A stretch of DNA of 64,000 nt from the NCBI RefSeq assembly GCF_044324875.1, contig NZ_CP172185.1; one strand, written 5' to 3'. The position numbers were made by a program, and so were the translations under genes. This document shows positions 52,827 through 63,161 of the stretch, piece by piece (positions within the stretch are counted from its first letter, which is position 1; each line of letters begins with the position of its first letter). The notes under the pieces were generated by a model. The model had not been told where the DNA came from. It searched no databases and saw nothing but the letters and a program-made list of their open reading frames with translations. This stretch comes from Escherichia coli (GTDB taxonomy: Bacteria; Pseudomonadota; Gammaproteobacteria; Enterobacterales; Enterobacteriaceae).

Positions 52827-53068
52827 GATTAATCAAAATATTCAATATTTATATATTCCAATATTTATTCATTTCATATGTGAATGTATTAACCAGTGGA
52901 ATACCTGTGTTTTGATTATTTCTAAAGGTTTTGAATGAATGCTTATTATCTGATACACAAGAAATAACACGCTTTTTATCGTTAAAAAATGATATTTCAC
53001 TTTGCCCACGCCGTTAAAGTCACTGATAATGCGTCCGTTCGTAAATTCAAAATGGCGTAATCTAATAT

Positions 53069-54616: not shown

Positions 54617-55309
54617 CTAGTGATAACCACGCGCGGTCATAAAATCCGTAATCGCTTTTTCTGCATCAACCAGCACCTTTTCCAGTGGCTGATTGGCATC
54701 GATATCAACCAGTTGTGCACCACCAAAGGTTAACTGTGGCGTTATTGCAATCTTCCTCGCCAGCGATTCCCGTTTATGGTCGGGTTTACGCGCGCAGGCA
54801 ACTTCAAGGTCAACATTGAGTTTGATGACCAGATCAGGTTTATGGCTCGCCATCCAGTGAAACGCTTTACGTTCCTGGCTTGCCAGCCATGAGACAAACC
54901 GGCCGCCTTCAACGTTAGGCGGGAACACTGTACCATCGTAAGCGCCAGGAATTTGGTCCTGAGGATAACGGTCGGTTAGAACAATTAACCCGCGACGACG
55001 ACAGGCAAGCATATGACGAAAGCGCAGTAAGCGACGGGCGACAAACGCTGTAATTACCAGCGCCGGAACAGGGCCAGGCAATTTTTTTGCTGTTTTCACC
55101 TGATTTCGTTCAATTGTTTTATGTAAGGATTTTCCCATCAACGGTAATTTTGTCACTGCACGACCGACATTTCCGGCCTGTTTTCCTAAATGAACTCTTT
55201 CGGCTGCACCATATTTTTCGACAACGGTAATGAGATGTTCACACACCGTTGACTTGCCTGAACCATCGCTACCAATAACGGCAATTAATGGAGGTGTTAT
55301 TGACTGCAT
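54617..55309 (-). CDS. yghT: P-loop NTPase of unknown function YghT
   Basis: 230-aa ORF with Walker A (GSDGSGKST) and hydrophobic-Asp Walker-B-like LTDRYPQ; paralog of the next two genes. Confidence 0.8.
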
Positions 55310-55389
55310 GAATATATCCTTTAATTTAAATATCCATTAAAAATATTTATTTGGTTAATATGTTTTTATGAAAGCGTAATTCAGGTCAA

Positions 55390-55414
55390 TGTCACAATTA
55401 ACCATTGTCACAAT
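55390..55414. promoter_or_regulatory. Direct repeat TGTCACAAT x2 in the yghT/yghS divergent promoter region
   Basis: tgtcacaat at about 55390-55398 and 55406-55414 within an AT-rich divergent intergenic region; candidate operator. Confidence 0.3.
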
Positions 55415-55482
55415 AAGGTTGAACGGATATTCTGAGCACGGACCACGTAATATTCAATACATTATTTGCTGCCGGGTTTTTC

Positions 55483-56196
55483 GTGAATCAACGTAATATG
55501 TCAATAATTAATTCCACGCCAGTGCGTGTTATTGCCATTGTAGGATGTGATGGTTCAGGTAAATCGACCCTCACGGCAAGCCTGGTAAATGAACTGGCAG
55601 CAAGAATGCCAACAGAACACATTTATCTCGGGCAATCGTCCGGGCGAATTGGCGAATGGATTTCACAGCTCCCTGTTATTGGCGCACCTTTTGGGCGTTA
55701 TCTGCGAAGTAAAGCGGCACATGTGCACGAAAAGCCCTCAACACCGCCTGGCAATATTACTGCGCTGGTTATCTATCTGCTTTCCTGCTGGCGGGCGTAT
55801 AAGTTTCGCAAAATGTTGTGTAAAAGCCAGCAAGGCTATCTGCTCATCACCGACCGCTACCCGCAGGTTGAAGTGCCGGGTTTTCGCTTTGATGGCCCGC
55901 AATTGGCAAAAACCACGGGCGGTAACGGTTGGATAAAAATGTTAAGGCAGCGCGAGCTGAAGCTGTACCAATGGATGGCGTCTTATTTGCCCGTATTGTT
56001 GATTCGTCTTGGCATTGATGAACAAACGGCGTTTGCGCGTAAACCTGACCACCAACTGGCGGCGTTACAGGAAAAAATCGCCGTTACGCCGCAACTGACA
56101 TTCAATGGCGCAAAGATCCTTGAACTGGATGGTCGGCAACCAGCCGATGAAATTATGCAAGCGTCACTACGCGCAATTCACGCCGCGCTTTCCTGA
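55483..56196 (+). CDS. yghS: P-loop NTPase of unknown function YghS
   Basis: 237-aa ORF with Walker A (GCDGSGKST) and ITDRYPQ; paralog of yghT and yghR. Confidence 0.8.
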   Translation: MNQRNMSIINSTPVRVIAIVGCDGSGKSTLTASLVNELAARMPTEHIYLGQSSGRIGEWISQLPVIGAPFGRYLRSKAAHVHEKPSTPPGNITALVIYLLSCWRAYKFRKMLCKSQQGYLLITDRYPQVEVPGFRFDGPQLAKTTGGNGWIKMLRQRELKLYQWMASYLPVLLIRLGIDEQTAFARKPDHQLAALQEKIAVTPQLTFNGAKILELDGRQPADEIMQASLRAIHAALS

Positions 56197-56227
56197 TCAC
56201 CAAAATGGATAGGGGATGATTTAACGA

Positions 56228-56986
56228 ATGGATGCACTACAAACACAAACTGTTAATAGTACAACCGCGCCGCAGCCCAACTACATTCCGGGGCTGATTG
56301 CGGTGGTCGGGTGTGATGGCACCGGTAAATCCACGCTGACCACCGACCTGGTGAAATCGCTGCAACAACACTGGCAAACCGAGCGCCGCTATCTGGGGCT
56401 GCTCTCCGGCGAAGACGGCGACAAAATCAAACGATTGCCGTTGGTTGGCGTCTGGCTGGAACGGCGACTGGCGGCCAAATCCTCGAAAACCCAAAGCATG
56501 AAAACCAAATCTCCAGCGCTATGGGCGGCGGTGATTATGTACTGCTTCTCGCTGCGAAGAATGGCGAATCTACGCAAGGTTCAGCGACTGGCGCAAAGTG
56601 GCGTTCTGGTGGTCAGCGATCGCTTCCCGCAGGCTGAAATTTCGGGCTTTTATTATGACGGACCGGGGATCGGCGTCGAACGTGCGACCGGGAAAATCAG
56701 CATGTTTCTGGCGCAGCGCGAACGGCGTTTATACCAAAAAATGGCGCAATACCGTCCTGAATTAATCATTCGTTTGGGGATTGATATTGATACTGCCATC
56801 TCCCGCAAGCCTGACCATGACTATGCCGAGCTGCAGGACAAAATCGGCGTCATGTCGACGATTGGCTATAACGGCACAAAAATTCTTGAGATTGATTCCA
56901 GAGCGCCCTACAGCGAAGTGCTGGAACAGGCACAGAAGGCGGTTTCTCTGGTTGCCATCGTTTCTGACCGCCGAAGTTTAACTTAA
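56228..56986 (+). CDS. yghR: P-loop NTPase of unknown function YghR
   Basis: 252-aa ORF with Walker A (GCDGTGKST) and VSDRFPQ; third paralog. Confidence 0.8.
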   Translation: MDALQTQTVNSTTAPQPNYIPGLIAVVGCDGTGKSTLTTDLVKSLQQHWQTERRYLGLLSGEDGDKIKRLPLVGVWLERRLAAKSSKTQSMKTKSPALWAAVIMYCFSLRRMANLRKVQRLAQSGVLVVSDRFPQAEISGFYYDGPGIGVERATGKISMFLAQRERRLYQKMAQYRPELIIRLGIDIDTAISRKPDHDYAELQDKIGVMSTIGYNGTKILEIDSRAPYSEVLEQAQKAVSLVAIVSDRRSLT

Positions 56987-57031
56987 GGCTGGCGGGATAC
57001 TTTTTACTATCAACGATAAGGTCAGGCTGAA

Positions 57032-58381
57032 TTGGCGGGTTTTAACATCAAACATTGGTTTGCAGATGGCGCGTTTCGCACCATTATTCGCAATAGCGCC
57101 TGGTTAGGCTCCAGTAATGTCGTGAGCGCCTTGCTGGGTCTGTTGGCGCTCTCGTGTGCCGGTAAAGGGATGACGCCCGCCATGTTTGGCGTACTGGTGA
57201 TTGTGCAATCGTACGCCAAGTCGATCAGCGATTTTATTAAGTTTCAGACATGGCAGTTGGTGGTGCAGTACGGAACACCAGCATTAACCAACAATAATCC
57301 ACAGCAATTCCGCAATGTCGTCTCATTTTCCTTCTCGCTGGATATCGTCAGCGGCGCGGTGGCGATTGTCGGCGGCATTGCCTTACTCCCTTTTCTTTCC
57401 CATTCATTAGGTCTGGATGACCAAAGCTTTTGGCTGGCAGCGCTGTATTGCACGCTCATTCCTTCAATGGCTTCCTCCACGCCGACCGGCATTCTGCGTG
57501 CGGTAGATCGCTTCGACTTAATTGCTGTACAGCAGGCGACGAAACCTTTTCTGCGCGCAGCGGGGAGCGTCGTTGCCTGGTATTTTGACTTTGGTTTTGC
57601 GGGTTTTGTTATTGCCTGGTACGCCTCGAATCTTGTTGGCGGCACCATGTACTGGTGGTTTGCCGCACGTGAATTACGCCGCAGAAATATCCATAACGCG
57701 TTCAAATTGAATCTGTTTGAGTCTGCCCGACACATCAAAGGCGCGTGGAGTTTTGTCTGGTCAACCAACATTGCCCATTCCATCTGGTCGGCGCGTAATT
57801 CGTGCAGCACAGTGTTGGTGGGGATCGTGTTAGGACCCGCTGCCGCCGGGTTATTTAAAATCGCCATGACATTCTTCGACGCCGCCGGAACGCCAGCGGG
57901 TTTACTGGGCAAAAGTTTTTACCCAGAGGTGATGCGTTTAGATCCGCGTACCACCAGACCGTGGTTGTTAGGCGTGAAGTCAGGTTTACTGGCGGGCGGA
58001 ATCGGTATTCTGGTGGCGCTCGCGGTGTTGATCGTCGGCAAGCCGCTCATTTCGCTGGTGTTTGGCGTTAAGTATCTCGAAGCGTATGACCTGATTCAGG
58101 TGATGCTGGGCGCAATTGTGATCTCGATGCTGGGCTTCCCTCAGGAGTCATTGCTATTGATGGCGGGAAAACAGCGCGCTTTTCTCGTGGCGCAAACCAT
58201 CGCCTCAATCGGCTACATCGTATTGCTGTTCATGTTCTGTCATCTGTTTGGCGTGCTGGGGGCTGCATTTGCTTACTTCGGTGGGCAATGTCTGGATGTG
58301 GTGTTCTCGCTAATTCCGACCTTAAAGGCATTTTTTCAGCGCCATTCCTTGCTTTATAACTCAGCCGGAGAGAAATCCTGA
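57032..58381 (+). CDS. yghQ: Polytopic inner membrane protein, Wzx/MOP-flippase-like (YghQ)
   Basis: 449-aa ORF, hydrophobic throughout with many predicted transmembrane segments; the ORF-track start is a TTG, so the true start may be an internal ATG (for example about 57170). Confidence 0.7.
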   Translation: MAGFNIKHWFADGAFRTIIRNSAWLGSSNVVSALLGLLALSCAGKGMTPAMFGVLVIVQSYAKSISDFIKFQTWQLVVQYGTPALTNNNPQQFRNVVSFSFSLDIVSGAVAIVGGIALLPFLSHSLGLDDQSFWLAALYCTLIPSMASSTPTGILRAVDRFDLIAVQQATKPFLRAAGSVVAWYFDFGFAGFVIAWYASNLVGGTMYWWFAARELRRRNIHNAFKLNLFESARHIKGAWSFVWSTNIAHSIWSARNSCSTVLVGIVLGPAAAGLFKIAMTFFDAAGTPAGLLGKSFYPEVMRLDPRTTRPWLLGVKSGLLAGGIGILVALAVLIVGKPLISLVFGVKYLEAYDLIQVMLGAIVISMLGFPQESLLLMAGKQRAFLVAQTIASIGYIVLLFMFCHLFGVLGAAFAYFGGQCLDVVFSLIPTLKAFFQRHSLLYNSAGEKS

Positions 58382-59217
58382 TGATGAGAAAATATTTCCC
58401 GCTTGAGGCGAGCGAGCGTCTATTTGTTGCGATTGAAGAAGATGATGTTGTTGATGCACAGGTCAGTTTGCCGCCGACTATCGCACTAAGTTGTACCACC
58501 GAAATCATCCATGATAATTACGCGTTATGCCTGCAATTCTGGCTCAATGGCGTCAATCGCCAGGAGTTACTGCGTTTAATATGCAAACAGGCCAAAGGCG
58601 ATGAGCTGACTGCTGATGAGCGCAAACAATTTAAATACATGCGAGCGCGCTACAAGCACCTGCGTTTTGCGCAACGGCTGTATTTAAAAAAGCATCAGGC
58701 CGGATTTTTATTCGGCAAAACGACCGTTTTTTTGGGGCGTTTTCAGGACGGCTTTCGTAACGGTAAGAAAAATATTGTGTCGTATTACGGCAACCTGTTA
58801 CGGGTTTATTTAAGCTCTCCGGTCTGGTCGTTGGTGAACTATTCATTACGCCATAGCCAGTTAGAAAGCGTAAGCGGTTTTATTGCCTATCGGCAAAAGC
58901 AAATGCATACCCTGAAAGAGATAATTGCCAAACCGCGACTAACTGGCAGGGAATTTCATGATGTGCGAAAAATCATCAGCCAGCAGGTTTCTTATTACGA
59001 CACCTTAAGATCGCTTGATCCTGAAAATAAAGAGGCGTTACTGATTTCCCGTTTTCTCGCCGCCATTAATGGTCTGATGGGGGATAAGCACGACGACATG
59101 GTGGCGGATGATATGGAAAACCGCCAGTCGTATGATGCACCGGTGGCGCTGGATAGCGATATTCGCCAGCGTTTAGAACTGCTGATTTCGCGTTTCCCAC
59201 TCTATCCGGAGCAATAA
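58381..59217 (+). CDS. Hypothetical soluble protein (no recognised domain)
   Basis: 278-aa ORF whose ATG overlaps the yghQ stop (ATGA) and whose stop overlaps the next start (TAATG); no transmembrane segment or signal peptide seen. Confidence 0.6.
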   Translation: MMRKYFPLEASERLFVAIEEDDVVDAQVSLPPTIALSCTTEIIHDNYALCLQFWLNGVNRQELLRLICKQAKGDELTADERKQFKYMRARYKHLRFAQRLYLKKHQAGFLFGKTTVFLGRFQDGFRNGKKNIVSYYGNLLRVYLSSPVWSLVNYSLRHSQLESVSGFIAYRQKQMHTLKEIIAKPRLTGREFHDVRKIISQQVSYYDTLRSLDPENKEALLISRFLAAINGLMGDKHDDMVADDMENRQSYDAPVALDSDIRQRLELLISRFPLYPEQ

Positions 59218-59777
59218 TGCCATCTCGTTGGATTTTCGCTCTGATCATCGCACTCTTAGCGCCAGGCGCGGTGGCACACAATTTCGTCACTGGCAAAACG
59301 GTTACCCCTGTTTATATCCAGGAAGGCGGTGAGTTGCTTCTGAAAAGCGACGACGAAATTCACTACCAAAAGTGGAACAGCACACAGCTGGCGGGAAAAG
59401 TTCGCATTATTCAGTATATCGCCGGGCGTAAGTCGGCGAAGAAAAAGAACTCACTGTTAATTAAAGCGGTTGAAGCGGCAAACTTTCCGCAGGATCGTTT
59501 TCAGCCCACCACCATTGTGAACACCGATGATGCCATTTTTGGTACTGGCTATTTTGTCGTTGGCAAAATCGAAAAAAATAAACGCCGCTATCCGTGGGCG
59601 CAATTCGTTATTGACGGCAATGGACAGGGACGCGTTGCCTGGCGGTTGCCGGAGCAGAGTTCAACCATTCTGGTGCTGAATAAAGACGGGCAAATTCAGT
59701 GGGCAAAGGACGGCAGCCTGACGCCGGAAGAGGTAGATCATGTCATTGCGCTGGCGCAGAAACTGATCAATGAATAA
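59217..59777 (+). CDS. Secreted/periplasmic protein with signal peptide (possibly YtfJ-like)
   Basis: 186-aa ORF with N-terminal signal peptide (MPSRWIFALIIALLAPGAVA); family assignment tentative. Confidence 0.55.
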   Translation: MPSRWIFALIIALLAPGAVAHNFVTGKTVTPVYIQEGGELLLKSDDEIHYQKWNSTQLAGKVRIIQYIAGRKSAKKKNSLLIKAVEAANFPQDRFQPTTIVNTDDAIFGTGYFVVGKIEKNKRRYPWAQFVIDGNGQGRVAWRLPEQSSTILVLNKDGQIQWAKDGSLTPEEVDHVIALAQKLINE

Positions 59778-59807
59778 AAAATTCAAAGGATTGAGGGCGT
59801 TAGCGAG

Positions 59808-60878
59808 ATGAAGCTGGTTGAACACTACATCATGCGTGGTACGCGCCGTCTGGTGTTGATTATCGTCGGTTTTCTGATCTTTATTTTCGCCAGCTACTCC
59901 GCACAGCGTTATCTGACCGAAGCGGCAAATGGGACATTAGCTCTTGATGTTGTGCTGGATATCGTTTTCTACAAAGTGCTGATTGCACTGGAGATGTTGT
60001 TACCTGTTGGACTGTATGTGTCAGTTGGCGTGACGCTAGGGCAGATGTATACCGATTCGGAAATTACCGCTATCTCTGCGGCGGGGGGCAGTCCGGGACG
60101 CTTGTACAAAGCCGTTCTTTATCTGGCGATACCGCTAAGTATTTTTGTCACCCTTCTGTCGATGTATGGTCGTCCGTGGGCTTATGCGCAGATTTATCAA
60201 CTGGAGCAACAGTCACAGTCGGAGCTGGATGTTCGCCAGTTGCGGGCAAAGAAATTTAACACTAACGATAACGGACGAATGATCCTTTCCCAGACGGTTG
60301 ATCAGGATAATAATCGCCTGACTGACGCGCTGATTTATACTTCTACTGCCAATCGAACCCGCATTTTCCGCGCCCGTTCGGTTGATGTGGTTGACCCATC
60401 TCCCGAGAAACCGACCGTTATGTTGCACAACGGGACAGCCTATCTTCTCGATCATCAGGGGCGTGACGACAACGAACAGATCTACCGTCATCTGCAATTA
60501 CATCTGAATCCGCTGGATCAAAGCCCTAACGTCAAACGCAAAGCGAAATCGGTCACGGAGCTGGCGCGCTCCGTCTTTCCAGCCGATCATGCCGAACTGC
60601 AATGGCGACAAAGCCGTGGCCTGACAGCATTGTTGATGGCGCTGCTGGCCATTTCATTAAGTCGGGTAAAACCGCGGCAAGGGCGATTTTCAACATTATT
60701 GCCACTGACGTTGCTGTTTATTGCCATTTTTTATGGCGGCGACGTCTGCCGTACGCTGGTGGCTAACGGCGCGATTCCCCTCATTCCTGGTTTGTGGTTA
60801 GTACCCGGACTCATGCTAATGGGCCTGCTGATGCTGGTCGCACGCGACTTCTCTTTGCTGCAGAAATTTTCCCGATGA
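59808..60878 (+). CDS. YjgP/YjgQ-family permease, LptF paralog
   Basis: 356-aa ORF with the N-terminal helix pair, LG..Y.DSEITA motif, a large periplasmic insert and the RQGRF motif typical of LptF/LptG; location shows it is not the canonical lptF. Confidence 0.8.
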   Translation: MKLVEHYIMRGTRRLVLIIVGFLIFIFASYSAQRYLTEAANGTLALDVVLDIVFYKVLIALEMLLPVGLYVSVGVTLGQMYTDSEITAISAAGGSPGRLYKAVLYLAIPLSIFVTLLSMYGRPWAYAQIYQLEQQSQSELDVRQLRAKKFNTNDNGRMILSQTVDQDNNRLTDALIYTSTANRTRIFRARSVDVVDPSPEKPTVMLHNGTAYLLDHQGRDDNEQIYRHLQLHLNPLDQSPNVKRKAKSVTELARSVFPADHAELQWRQSRGLTALLMALLAISLSRVKPRQGRFSTLLPLTLLFIAIFYGGDVCRTLVANGAIPLIPGLWLVPGLMLMGLLMLVARDFSLLQKFSR

Positions 60879-61954
60879 ATGTTTTCAGTCGCTATTTAAT
60901 CCGTCATCTCTTTCTCGGTTTTGCCGCCGCCGCAGGGCTATTGCTGCCGCTTTTTACCACCTTCAACCTGATTAACGAACTGGATGATGTCAGCCCGGGT
61001 GGTTATCGCTGGACTCAGGCGGTGCTGGTGGTGCTGATGACCTTACCGCGCACACTGGTCGAACTTTCGCCGTTTATCGCATTATTGGGAGGGATTGTTG
61101 GCCTGGGGCAGTTATCGAAAAACAGTGAGCTTACCGCCATTCGCAGCACGGGGTTTTCTATCTTCCGTATTGCACTAGTGGCGCTGGTTGCCGGGATATT
61201 TTGGACTGTTTCGTTAGGCGCGATAGATGAGTGGGTGGCGTCGCCATTGCAGCAACAGGCGCTGCAAATCAAATCGACTGCCACCGCGTTGGGGGAGGAC
61301 GATGACATTACCGGCAATATGCTTTGGGCCAGGCGCGGTAATGAATTTGTGACGGTGAAATCGCTGAACGAGCAGGGCCAGCCTGTGGGCGTGGAGATAT
61401 TTCATTATCGCGACGATCTCTCGCTCGAATCCTACATTTTTGCACGCAGTGCCTCCATTGAAGACGACAAAACGTGGATCCTGCATGGTGTGAATCATAA
61501 AAAATGGTTGAATGGCAAAGAAACGCTGGAAACATCAGATAATCTTGCCTGGCAATCGGCCTTCACCAGTATGAATCTTGAAGAGTTATCGATGCCGGGA
61601 AATACTTTTTCTGTCCGTCAACTTAATCATTACATCCATTATTTGCAGGAAACTGGGCAACCCAGCAGCGAATACCGCCTTGCACTGTGGGAAAAACTGG
61701 GACAACCCATCCTGACCCTGGCGATGATTTTGCTGGCTGTGCCGTTTACCTTTAGTGCCCCGCGTTCGCCTGGGATGGGTAGCCGTCTCGCTGTAGGCGT
61801 CATCGTGGGCTTACTTACCTGGATCAGCTATCAAATCATGGTCAATCTGGGATTGCTATTTGCGTTGAACGCACCTGTTACCGCGCTCGGTTTACCGGTA
61901 GCGTTTGTGCTGGTGGCGTTGAGCCTGGTGTATTGGTATGACAGACAACATTAA
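60875..61954 (+). CDS. YjgP/YjgQ-family permease, LptG paralog
   Basis: ORF 60794..61954 trimmed to MNVFSRYLIRHLFLGF (359 aa), whose ATG overlaps the upstream stop (ATGA); LptG-like motifs (SEL.A..S.G, PRSPGMGSR). Confidence 0.8.
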   Translation: MNVFSRYLIRHLFLGFAAAAGLLLPLFTTFNLINELDDVSPGGYRWTQAVLVVLMTLPRTLVELSPFIALLGGIVGLGQLSKNSELTAIRSTGFSIFRIALVALVAGIFWTVSLGAIDEWVASPLQQQALQIKSTATALGEDDDITGNMLWARRGNEFVTVKSLNEQGQPVGVEIFHYRDDLSLESYIFARSASIEDDKTWILHGVNHKKWLNGKETLETSDNLAWQSAFTSMNLEELSMPGNTFSVRQLNHYIHYLQETGQPSSEYRLALWEKLGQPILTLAMILLAVPFTFSAPRSPGMGSRLAVGVIVGLLTWISYQIMVNLGLLFALNAPVTALGLPVAFVLVALSLVYWYDRQH

Positions 61955-61988
61955 ACCCGCCGTGGCGCAACACCACAGCGGGCTCACA

Positions 61989-63161
61989 TTACTGCTTCAG
62001 AGTAGCGAACGCTTGAATGATGGCATCAATTTGCTCACGACTGTGGGCAGCGTTTACGCTACAGCGCAGCAGCGTGATGCCTGCAGGCGCGGCAGGTGGC
62101 AGGATAAGATTCACATAAACGCCCAGCGAAATAAGCTCGCGCCAGATGCGTAAACCTTCCTCTTTCGAACCGATTATTACTGGCACTACCGGGCTAATAT
62201 GTGAACTTAACTCATAACCCAGTTTTTGCAGACCGTCATACAGATGGTTGGCATTATCCATCAGCTTTTGCCGCAACTCTGGTTGTGTAGCAATGGTTCT
62301 TAACGACGAGCGCACGGTCGCAATGCAGGACGGAGAAGGAGAGGCGGTAAAAATATACGGGCGGCTGCCGTAGCGCAGCACTTCCATCGCTTCCGAACCG
62401 ACAGCAAAACCGCCAATCGAGGCCAGACTTTTACTGAAAGTACCAACGATAATATCCACATCATCTTCAACGCCAACGGCTTCAGCCAGTCCGCGCCCCG
62501 TTGCGCCTAACACGCCAAACGAATGCGCTTCATCGACAATCAAATAACCACCGAGACGACGTTTGATATCAACAATTTCCGCCAGCGGCGCAACGTCACC
62601 GAGCATACTGTAGATGCCTTCAACGATGATAATCGCCTCTTTTGCCCGTTCACCGAGGCGAACCATGCGCCGTTCCAGATCTTTAGCATCGTTATGGCGG
62701 AAACGAATAATTTCCGCGCCACCGAGAGAACAGGCGTCATAAATACTGGCGTGGCTGTCGGCATCCAGTAACACCACGGCGTTATGGTCGGCAAGTGCGC
62801 TGATGACGCCTAAATTAGCGGTATAACCGGTTGAAAAAACGATAGCGGTAGGGCGATTAAAAAACTCGGCGATCTCTTTCTCTAACGCCAGATGCGGCGC
62901 ATAACTGCCGTTTGCCATACGAGAACCGGTGGTGCCGGTGCCTTGGGCCGCTAACGCTGCCTGACCTTCGGCGATGGCATCATGATTGAAGGTTAATCCG
63001 AGATAATTATTGGTCCCGGCCAGAATCACTTTTTTATTGCCGATCCGGCCTTCGGTGGCGGAATACACTTCATCAATACAGGTACCAAACGGCGTTAACC
63101 CGTTGTCACTAAATTGCAGTCGCTCGCCAGCAAGACGCGCATATTTATCGTATAGCCCCAT
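61989..63161 (-). CDS. Serine palmitoyltransferase-like PLP-dependent alpha-oxoamine synthase
   Basis: 390-aa ORF with the PLP-lysine motif GTFSKS (Spt-type; BioF has TFGKG, KBL has GTLGKA) and further blocks recalled from Sphingomonas Spt (AIVFSTGY.ANLG, LDADSHASIYD, VDEAHS, RPYIFTAS, PPA.PAG, LLRCS). Confidence 0.8.
   Translation of the reverse strand: MGLYDKYARLAGERLQFSDNGLTPFGTCIDEVYSATEGRIGNKKVILAGTNNYLGLTFNHDAIAEGQAALAAQGTGTTGSRMANGSYAPHLALEKEIAEFFNRPTAIVFSTGYTANLGVISALADHNAVVLLDADSHASIYDACSLGGAEIIRFRHNDAKDLERRMVRLGERAKEAIIIVEGIYSMLGDVAPLAEIVDIKRRLGGYLIVDEAHSFGVLGATGRGLAEAVGVEDDVDIIVGTFSKSLASIGGFAVGSEAMEVLRYGSRPYIFTASPSPSCIATVRSSLRTIATQPELRQKLMDNANHLYDGLQKLGYELSSHISPVVPVIIGSKEEGLRIWRELISLGVYVNLILPPAAPAGITLLRCSVNAAHSREQIDAIIQAFATLKQ

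Follow-up and report, generated by a model that had tools for sequence, protein, structure and literature searches.

A 9-bp direct repeat between yghT and yghS of Escherichia coli probably lies within a sigma-70 promoter of the yghS operon

The divergent genes yghT and yghS of Escherichia coli are separated by 173 bp of AT-rich DNA (positions 55310-55482; 30% G+C), in which the 9-bp sequence TGTCACAAT occurs twice, 16 bp apart from start to start with a gap of 7 bp. What is the role of this repeat? The first-pass annotation took it for the binding site of a dimeric or tandem-binding regulator that controls both genes. We examined the repeat in the window, that is, the whole stretch of 64 kb analysed here, and in related genomes.

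Our preferred reading, to which we give a probability of about 0.6, is that a sigma-70 promoter serves the yghS operon and that the repeat falls in its core and upstream portions. The features under discussion are listed in Table 1.

Table 1. Positions of the genes, repeat copies and predicted elements in the window
Feature	Position	Strand	Remarks
yghT	54617-55309	-	Divergent P-loop gene
Block under strong purifying selection in Escherichia	55388-55482		Promoter and predicted yghS 5' UTR; 4/93 sites variable
Upstream ORF, 35 codons	55389-55496		ATG inside copy 1; stop 1 nt before the ATG at 55498
Repeat copy 1, TGTCACAAT	55390-55398	+	Exact match; ACAnT (55394-55398) runs into TTA (55398-55400)
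Candidate dyad ACAAT-TAACC-ATTGT	55394-55408		5-bp arms, 5-bp spacer; centre 55401 (about -39/-40); right arm overlaps the -35
Predicted -35 hexamer TTGTCA	55405-55410	+	5/6 matches to TTGACA; inside copy 2 and the preceding T
Repeat copy 2, TGTCACAAT	55406-55414	+	Exact match; first five bases and the preceding T form the predicted -35 hexamer
Predicted -10 hexamer TATTCT	55428-55433	+	4/6 matches to TATAAT, A2 and T6 among them; follows a conserved A
yghS	55483-56196	+	P-loop gene, first of the + strand cluster
yghS-to-lptG-like cluster, seven genes	55483-61954	+	Tightly packed on one strand

The repeat and its expectation by chance

The presence of two exact copies at this spacing in an AT-rich divergent region was confirmed. 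TGTCACAAT occurred exactly twice in the window, both times within the yghT/yghS intergenic region, which was 100% identical to that of strain 4/1-1. Extended by their flanks, the copies read CAATGTCACAAT and CATTGTCACAAT and were identical at 11 of 12 positions. The two 16-bp units containing them were identical at 12 of 16. Since each unit is partly palindromic, the pair can also be read as a 23-bp dyad, TGTCACAAT-TAACC-ATTGTCACA, the arms of which are complementary at eight of nine positions.

Of dinucleotide shuffles of the region, 4% had an exact direct repeat 9 bp or longer at a spacing of at most 30 bp, and 0.8% had one with an internal palindrome as well. In the window, 11 such repeats were counted where 5.8±2.5 were expected. 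Because the window has dozens of intergenic regions, the repeat alone was insignificant. The sequence statistics are weak, and a chance origin of the repeat is compatible with the sequence alone.

Other short repeats were seen nearby. A second repeat with a period of 16 bp, ATATCCTTTAA / ATATCCATTAA, is present in the same intergenic region (55314-55340). Within Escherichia only its ATATCC is conserved, and its first copy overlaps the ribosome-binding site of yghT. The inverted sequence, GGATAT, at 55425-55430 overlaps the -10 box. In the gss-pitB intergenic region (52843-52868), CAATATTTAT occurs twice, likewise 16 bp apart, directly after a terminator-like hairpin at the end of gss.

Conservation of the intergenic region

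The intergenic region was found in about 4,690 of 5,426 complete E. coli genomes. A 31-bp core (55386-55416) was identical in 4662 of 4684 genomes and carried one mismatch in the other 22. The commonest variant nearby, C>T at 55424 in 96 genomes, fell outside the repeat. The variants at 55418, 55424, 55435, 55436, 55441 and 55468 were located in the spacer, around the predicted start or in the leader, and the hexamers were free of them.

Three other Escherichia lineages were retrieved through the YghS protein, and were thus not selected for the motif. Across the window and these lineages, the repeat block contained no variable site. This indicated that the TGTCACAAT repeat is constrained. In the same comparison, the four-fold sites of yghS and yghT were variable at 98 of 224 positions (44%).

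The two halves of the intergenic region differed in this respect. The yghT-proximal half had 17 variable sites in 80, versus 4 in 93 in the yghS-proximal half. The latter corresponds to the block at 55388-55482, and its difference from the four-fold sites was highly significant (P about 7e-18). The constraint on the repeat, on the other hand, was not above that on the following 60 bp (Fisher P = 0.3). The proposal that the site controls both divergent genes was left without support, because the conserved block adjoins yghS and not yghT, and the yghT-proximal half evolves faster.

The patch of low variation among the Escherichia lineages runs on from 55388 to 55655 and takes in the promoter and the first ~58 codons of yghS. 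Seven of 33 four-fold sites were variable in this patch, compared with 36 of 80 in the remainder of yghS (P = 0.02), and its non-coding part was more conserved than either flanking coding sequence. In E. coli PCP06171, an IS1 element lies immediately upstream of copy 1 (equivalent to window position ~55386/55387), so that the conserved promoter block stays with yghS and is cut off from the yghT side.

For the comparison across genera, orthologues of YghS with 65-90% identity were found by a protein search in many Enterobacterales, across dozens of genera. They had been missed by a peptide-pattern scan of species-representative genomes, whose only close hits were three Escherichia loci, next to some distant MAG homologues lacking the divergent pair. 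Twelve yghT-yghS loci were compared, and the divergent pair was kept in all twelve. The upstream region was alignable in nine lineage representatives (E. coli, E. albertii, two enterobacterial contigs, a Hafnia MAG, C. amalonaticus, Pseudocitrobacter, Shimwellia and Pluralibacter). Kosakonia and Serratia had longer intergenic regions that did not align with that of E. coli.

Two short elements stood out in the alignment. TTGTCA(C) at 55405-55411 had a majority fraction of 0.94, with the -35 hexamer identical in eight of the nine representatives, and (A)TATTCT at 55427-55433 had one of 0.98. The distance between the hexamers was 17 bp in all alignable lineages except Shimwellia (16 bp). The sequence of this spacer drifted (majority fraction 0.71), as in CAATAAGGTTGAACGGA, CAACTATGATGAGCATA, CAACTTTATTGAACAGA and CATTCAGGCCGAAAAGA. 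Almost invariant hexamers at a fixed spacing with a drifting spacer are the typical footprint of a sigma-70 promoter.

The repeat itself fared differently. The TGTC of copy 1 had a majority fraction of 0.56, versus 0.54 for the upstream flank, and the AAT tail of copy 2 (55412-55414) one of 0.67. The segment ACAnT plus TTA (55394-55400, about -46 to -40) was moderately conserved, at 0.82. Copy 1 reads TGCCACAAT in E. albertii, and in the other genera copy 1 is without its TGTC and copy 2 without its AAT. The 9-bp direct repeat is thus limited to E. coli and the cryptic Escherichia clades. Conservation of the repeat in related strains, as proposed for an operator, was thus borne out by 4662 of 4684 E. 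coli genomes and by the three Escherichia lineages, but not by E. albertii and the other genera.

The GTG at 55483 is replaced by ATG in other genera, and this alternation confirmed it as the start codon of yghS. In the predicted leader (55447-55482), TAATATWCAAT (55447-55457) and a GGnTTTTTC before the start codon were also conserved across genera. ACGTAATAT also occurs twice, at 55445 and 55491.

The block might also be conserved for a product, either the 35-codon upstream ORF or an RNA (a small RNA or a structured leader). In E. coli, the reading frame stays open and covers the conserved block. However, its changes within Escherichia were two synonymous and four non-synonymous, third codon positions were not more variable, and the ATG is lost elsewhere: it reads AAAG in one enterobacterial contig (L145) and in Hafnia, and AACG in C. 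amalonaticus. For a structured RNA, the folding z-scores were 0.32 and -0.21, and the best Rfam matches reached at most 22 bits against gathering scores of at least 50, so that no family attained its threshold. We consider a conserved product of either kind extremely improbable.

Promoter and operator readings

The pair TTGTCA-17 bp-TATTCT was the only promoter reported by a consensus scan of the region. It was also the top sigma-70 candidate by PWM on the yghS strand. The predicted transcription start falls at ~55438-55441, leaving a leader of ~43 nt before the GTG. Since the conserved unit is this pair of hexamers at this spacing, copy 2 is best read as the -35 hexamer.

We propose that a sigma-70 promoter would drive yghS and, very probably, the whole seven-gene cluster as far as the lptG-like gene. 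Copy 2 would supply its -35 element, with the -10 element seventeen bp downstream, and transcription would begin near 55440. Copy 1 would then lie at about -50 to -42, and its ACAnTTA would sit where a regulator half-site or a promoter-proximal UP-like contact is expected. The 9-bp direct repeat as such would be a coincidence or an old local duplication of 16 bp, the latter being proposed because the 16-bp units match at 12 of 16 positions; it would not be the functional unit.

The sequence itself, its pattern of conservation and the constant spacing are observed directly. The use of TTGTCA/TATTCT by RNA polymerase, the start site and the extent of the operon are counted here as inferred. No yghS start site was found in the TSS papers and supplements. 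Neither yghS nor yghT had an entry in those searched, some supplements being possibly incomplete. Searches of the literature by gene name, b-number and motif string gave no operator, regulator site or start site for either gene; the motif string returned only primers. The promoter feature carried no annotation in the RefSeq records examined.

The predicted promoter resembles H-NS-silenced sigma-70 promoters in its near-consensus -35 TTGTCA, 17-bp spacer and weak -10 TATTCT, in hexamers and spacing that are kept while the spacer sequence drifts, and in its AT-rich, horizontally acquired context. It differs from a typical sigma-70 promoter in a -10 that matches at only 4/6 positions, an unusually conserved 43-nt leader, and the ACAnTTA at -46 to -40. 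In K-12, yghS is H-NS-bound and was up 3.1-fold on SlyA overexpression (PMC5797941). This suggested that the yghS promoter behaves as silenced but functional. A weak FlhDC SELEX peak has also been reported near yghS, with the proposed motif inside the yghT coding sequence (PMC9962212).

Two observations go beyond what a plain promoter requires. E. coli and the cryptic clades have kept copy 1 without any change, and the ACAAT in it is exactly complementary to the ATTGT overlapping the -35. These argue against a reading as promoter only. A -35 hexamer can belong to a regulator site as well, and the promoter reading is therefore compatible with an operator.

A dimeric regulator might bind the candidate dyad ACAAT-N5-ATTGT, or its extended form TGTCACAAT-N5-ATTGTCACA, near -40. 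It could repress by occlusion or, if the promoter is silenced by H-NS, work as an activator of the class-II type, and the direct repeat would be a by-product of partly palindromic arms. The 5-bp arms are perfect complements (5/5) one helical turn apart, and the extended arms match at 8/9 positions. In the nine representatives, the positions of the left arm were conserved at 0.78, 0.89, 1.0, 0.56 and 0.89 (mean 0.82). The 5-bp spacer, on the other hand, varied (TAACC, TAGGC, TAGTC, TACCC and TAATT), which is common for uncontacted spacers. Conservation within Escherichia begins exactly at the left edge of the element, at 55388. The complementarity of ACAAT and ATTGT together with the free 5-bp spacer makes a dimeric regulator near -40 a real possibility.

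Against it, in Pseudocitrobacter and a related contig the left arm has decayed to ATATT or CCATT, although the hexamers are kept there, and the near-invariance of the right arm is expected anyway because that arm is the -35 box. No second site was present within the window or the island, no regulator gene in the island, and none of the E. coli consensus sequences compared beat the shuffles. We hold binding of a dimeric regulator here as a tentative, minority possibility. The element in copy 1 may be the site of such a regulator, an AT-rich UP-like contact or a coincidence, and these were not separated by the comparison.

The same dyad was sought in metagenomes, and at least 120 loci were found; among the matches listed, 31 were the E. 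coli region itself. The remaining loci had unrelated contexts, in numbers compatible with chance and a few abundant organisms. As they were selected for an exact match, they are silent on variation inside the motif. One context in gut metagenome contigs bears on the regulator reading by analogy. There the 23-bp dyad lies in the intergenic region between genes for a two-component system and an ABC transporter, which suggests, by analogy only, that such a dyad can occupy a regulator-controlled promoter.

This arrangement recalls the regulator sites upstream of Bce-type ABC transporter genes in Firmicutes, with TGTCACAAT-N5-ATTGTCACA between OmpR-family regulator plus kinase genes and ABC-ATPase plus FtsX-permease genes. 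The organism and the genes are unrelated to those of yghS, the match came from searching for the exact pattern, and binding there is only inferred. In human-gut contigs the dyad was seen at 17 or more loci (L018 5660-5745; also, e.g., L059 and L065) as AAAAATCACAAT-CC-TGTCACAAT-CTAAC-ATTGTCACA-AA-AYTGTGATTTTT. It is probably the regulator site of the Bce-type system, or a terminator or promoter hairpin. Five other metagenome contigs (L019, L028, L072, L078 and L106) carried tandem TGTCACA(A/T) arrays with an 8-bp period, which are iteron- or centromere-like and unrelated to E. coli.

With respect to known systems, the dyad shares with the class II or -35-overlapping repressor sites of the CRP/FNR type (near -41.5) its 5-bp arms, their separation of one turn and a centre near -40, and its downstream arm overlaps the -35. 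The spacer, however, is 5 bp long, versus 6 for CRP and 4 for FNR, and the half-sites ACAAT/ATTGT matched TGTGA/TCACA and TTGAT/ATCAA at best at 7 of 10 positions, which is the chance level.

Comparison with the sites of known E. coli regulators, which the operator proposal had invited, did not yield a candidate. The sites of CRP, FNR, PhoB, DnaA, MlrA, CusR, PdhR, DgoR, SlyA, LexA, Fur, ArcA, IHF, H-NS, Zur and sigma-54 all matched no better than shuffled sequence. For every consensus tested, the best match observed was reached in at least 135 of 500 shuffles, the comparison using consensus strings and not a curated matrix library. The Pho box of PhoB (direct repeats of CTGTCAT) shares with the repeat a TGTCA core present twice in direct orientation, and a phosphate transporter gene, pitB, is a neighbour. 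The period, however, is 16 bp in the yghS repeat versus 11 bp in the Pho box, and conservation of the TGTC is lacking in copy 1 of the yghS repeat. A Pho box was matched best (12/18) at a place in the region other than the repeat, and at the chance level.

The tandem form of the original proposal takes the two TGTCACAAT units as sites for a head-to-tail dimer or for two dimers, acting on both yghT and yghS. In its favour, the repeat is exact and lies in the middle of the divergent region, E. coli and the cryptic clades show no variation in it, and Shimwellia too has GTCAC twice, 16 bp apart. But past the E. coli clade neither the TGTC of copy 1 nor the AAT of copy 2 is conserved, E. albertii having diverged already, and the conserved block is on the yghS side, not that of yghT. 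Tandem binders have periods of 10-11 bp, with 11 bp for the OmpR/PhoB type, or of about 21 bp, as for the LytTR type. A period of 16 bp does not suit them, since the units would then face opposite sides of the helix. Nor did the Pho box or any other consensus compared fit the region.

The first-pass annotation had suggested looking for the same repeat upstream of yghQ and of the spt operon, and it proved absent from both. It was not enriched in the window or the island, and its absence from the island's other promoters also argues against tandem sites. The yghO/spt-operon region shares the 9-mer TCACAATAA with the yghS region, and five shared 9-mers versus 2.4 expected is within chance. That region has direct repeats of its own, CATTCATAA and CATTCACAA, 18 bp apart (L002 13937-13971). 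Its CATTCACAATAA is the yghS-side CATTGTCACAATAA minus GT, a likeness estimated to be within chance (about P = 0.1).

Control by tandem sites thus appears very improbable. Of the binding-site proposal there remains that the DNA is cis-regulatory promoter DNA under purifying selection (4/93 variable sites versus 98/224); the tandem repeat is not the conserved unit.

The repeat units might also be read as tandem or back-to-back extended -10 promoters, with TGTCACAAT as TGn plus CACAAT on the + strand and TGTGACAAT / TGTGACATT on the - strand, giving initiation in both directions without a -35. The four TGn-hexamer readings had the best extended -10 scores in the region, and such symmetry would suit a divergent promoter. 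However, the TG and the T at position 6 of the hexamer are not conserved: copy 2 becomes CACAAC, CACATT or CACGAC, and copy 1 is without TG in most lineages. We regard this arrangement as very improbable.

Genes served by the promoter

The products of both yghT and yghS are P-loop proteins, as the first-pass annotation had it, with weak thymidylate-kinase-like Pfam matches. The cluster that starts with yghS continues with yghR, yghQ (flippase-like), a gene without assignment, a YtfJ-family gene, an LptF-like gene and an LptG-like gene. These are most likely the genes served by the yghS promoter. The cluster is convergent with an operon for an acyl-AMP ligase, an epimerase, an ACP and a serine palmitoyltransferase.

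This layout resembles that of the Caulobacter sphingolipid region, which has second LptF and LptG copies and a flippase (PMC11324152). The stretch from 55483 to 63161 of the window, together with locus L002 (12600-19311), resembles a sphingolipid-type island. It contains an acyl-AMP ligase, an epimerase/dehydratase, an ACP, a serine palmitoyltransferase, YghO, the flippase-like YghQ, second LptF/LptG copies and three P-loop kinase-like proteins. The genes yghS-yghR-yghQ through the LptF/G-like genes appear to be the transport and modification arm of this island. Examination of the gene content revealed no obvious regulator gene encoded in the island.

The surroundings differ in other lineages. 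In Kosakonia and Serratia, the yghT homologue adjoins spt directly, not pitB. In one enterobacterial contig (L149 1-575), the yghT-yghS pair adjoins the gene of a sigma-54-dependent activator (GAF, Sigma54_activat and HTH_8 domains), and its 150-bp yghT-yghS intergenic region did not align with that of E. coli.

If the dyad were an operator, its regulator might turn on, or hold silent, the export arm (flippase and LptF/LptG-like genes) of a cryptic island of the sphingolipid type. The island is shared by E. coli and several other Enterobacterales, and the site is kept even in K-12, where the spt half is deleted. We consider this operator reading speculative and rather unlikely.

Most likely the element is ordinary promoter DNA, a core promoter rather than a direct-repeat operator, and the conspicuous direct repeat is the wrong unit to target. 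The significance is modest: an H-NS-silenced E. coli operon that is still uncharacterised gains a concrete promoter model, with support from the comparison of genera. It names the bases to mutate in reporter fusions, namely TTGTCA, TATTCT and ACAAT. If it were true that a regulator binds the dyad, this would provide a handle on when E. coli expresses a cryptic lipid system.
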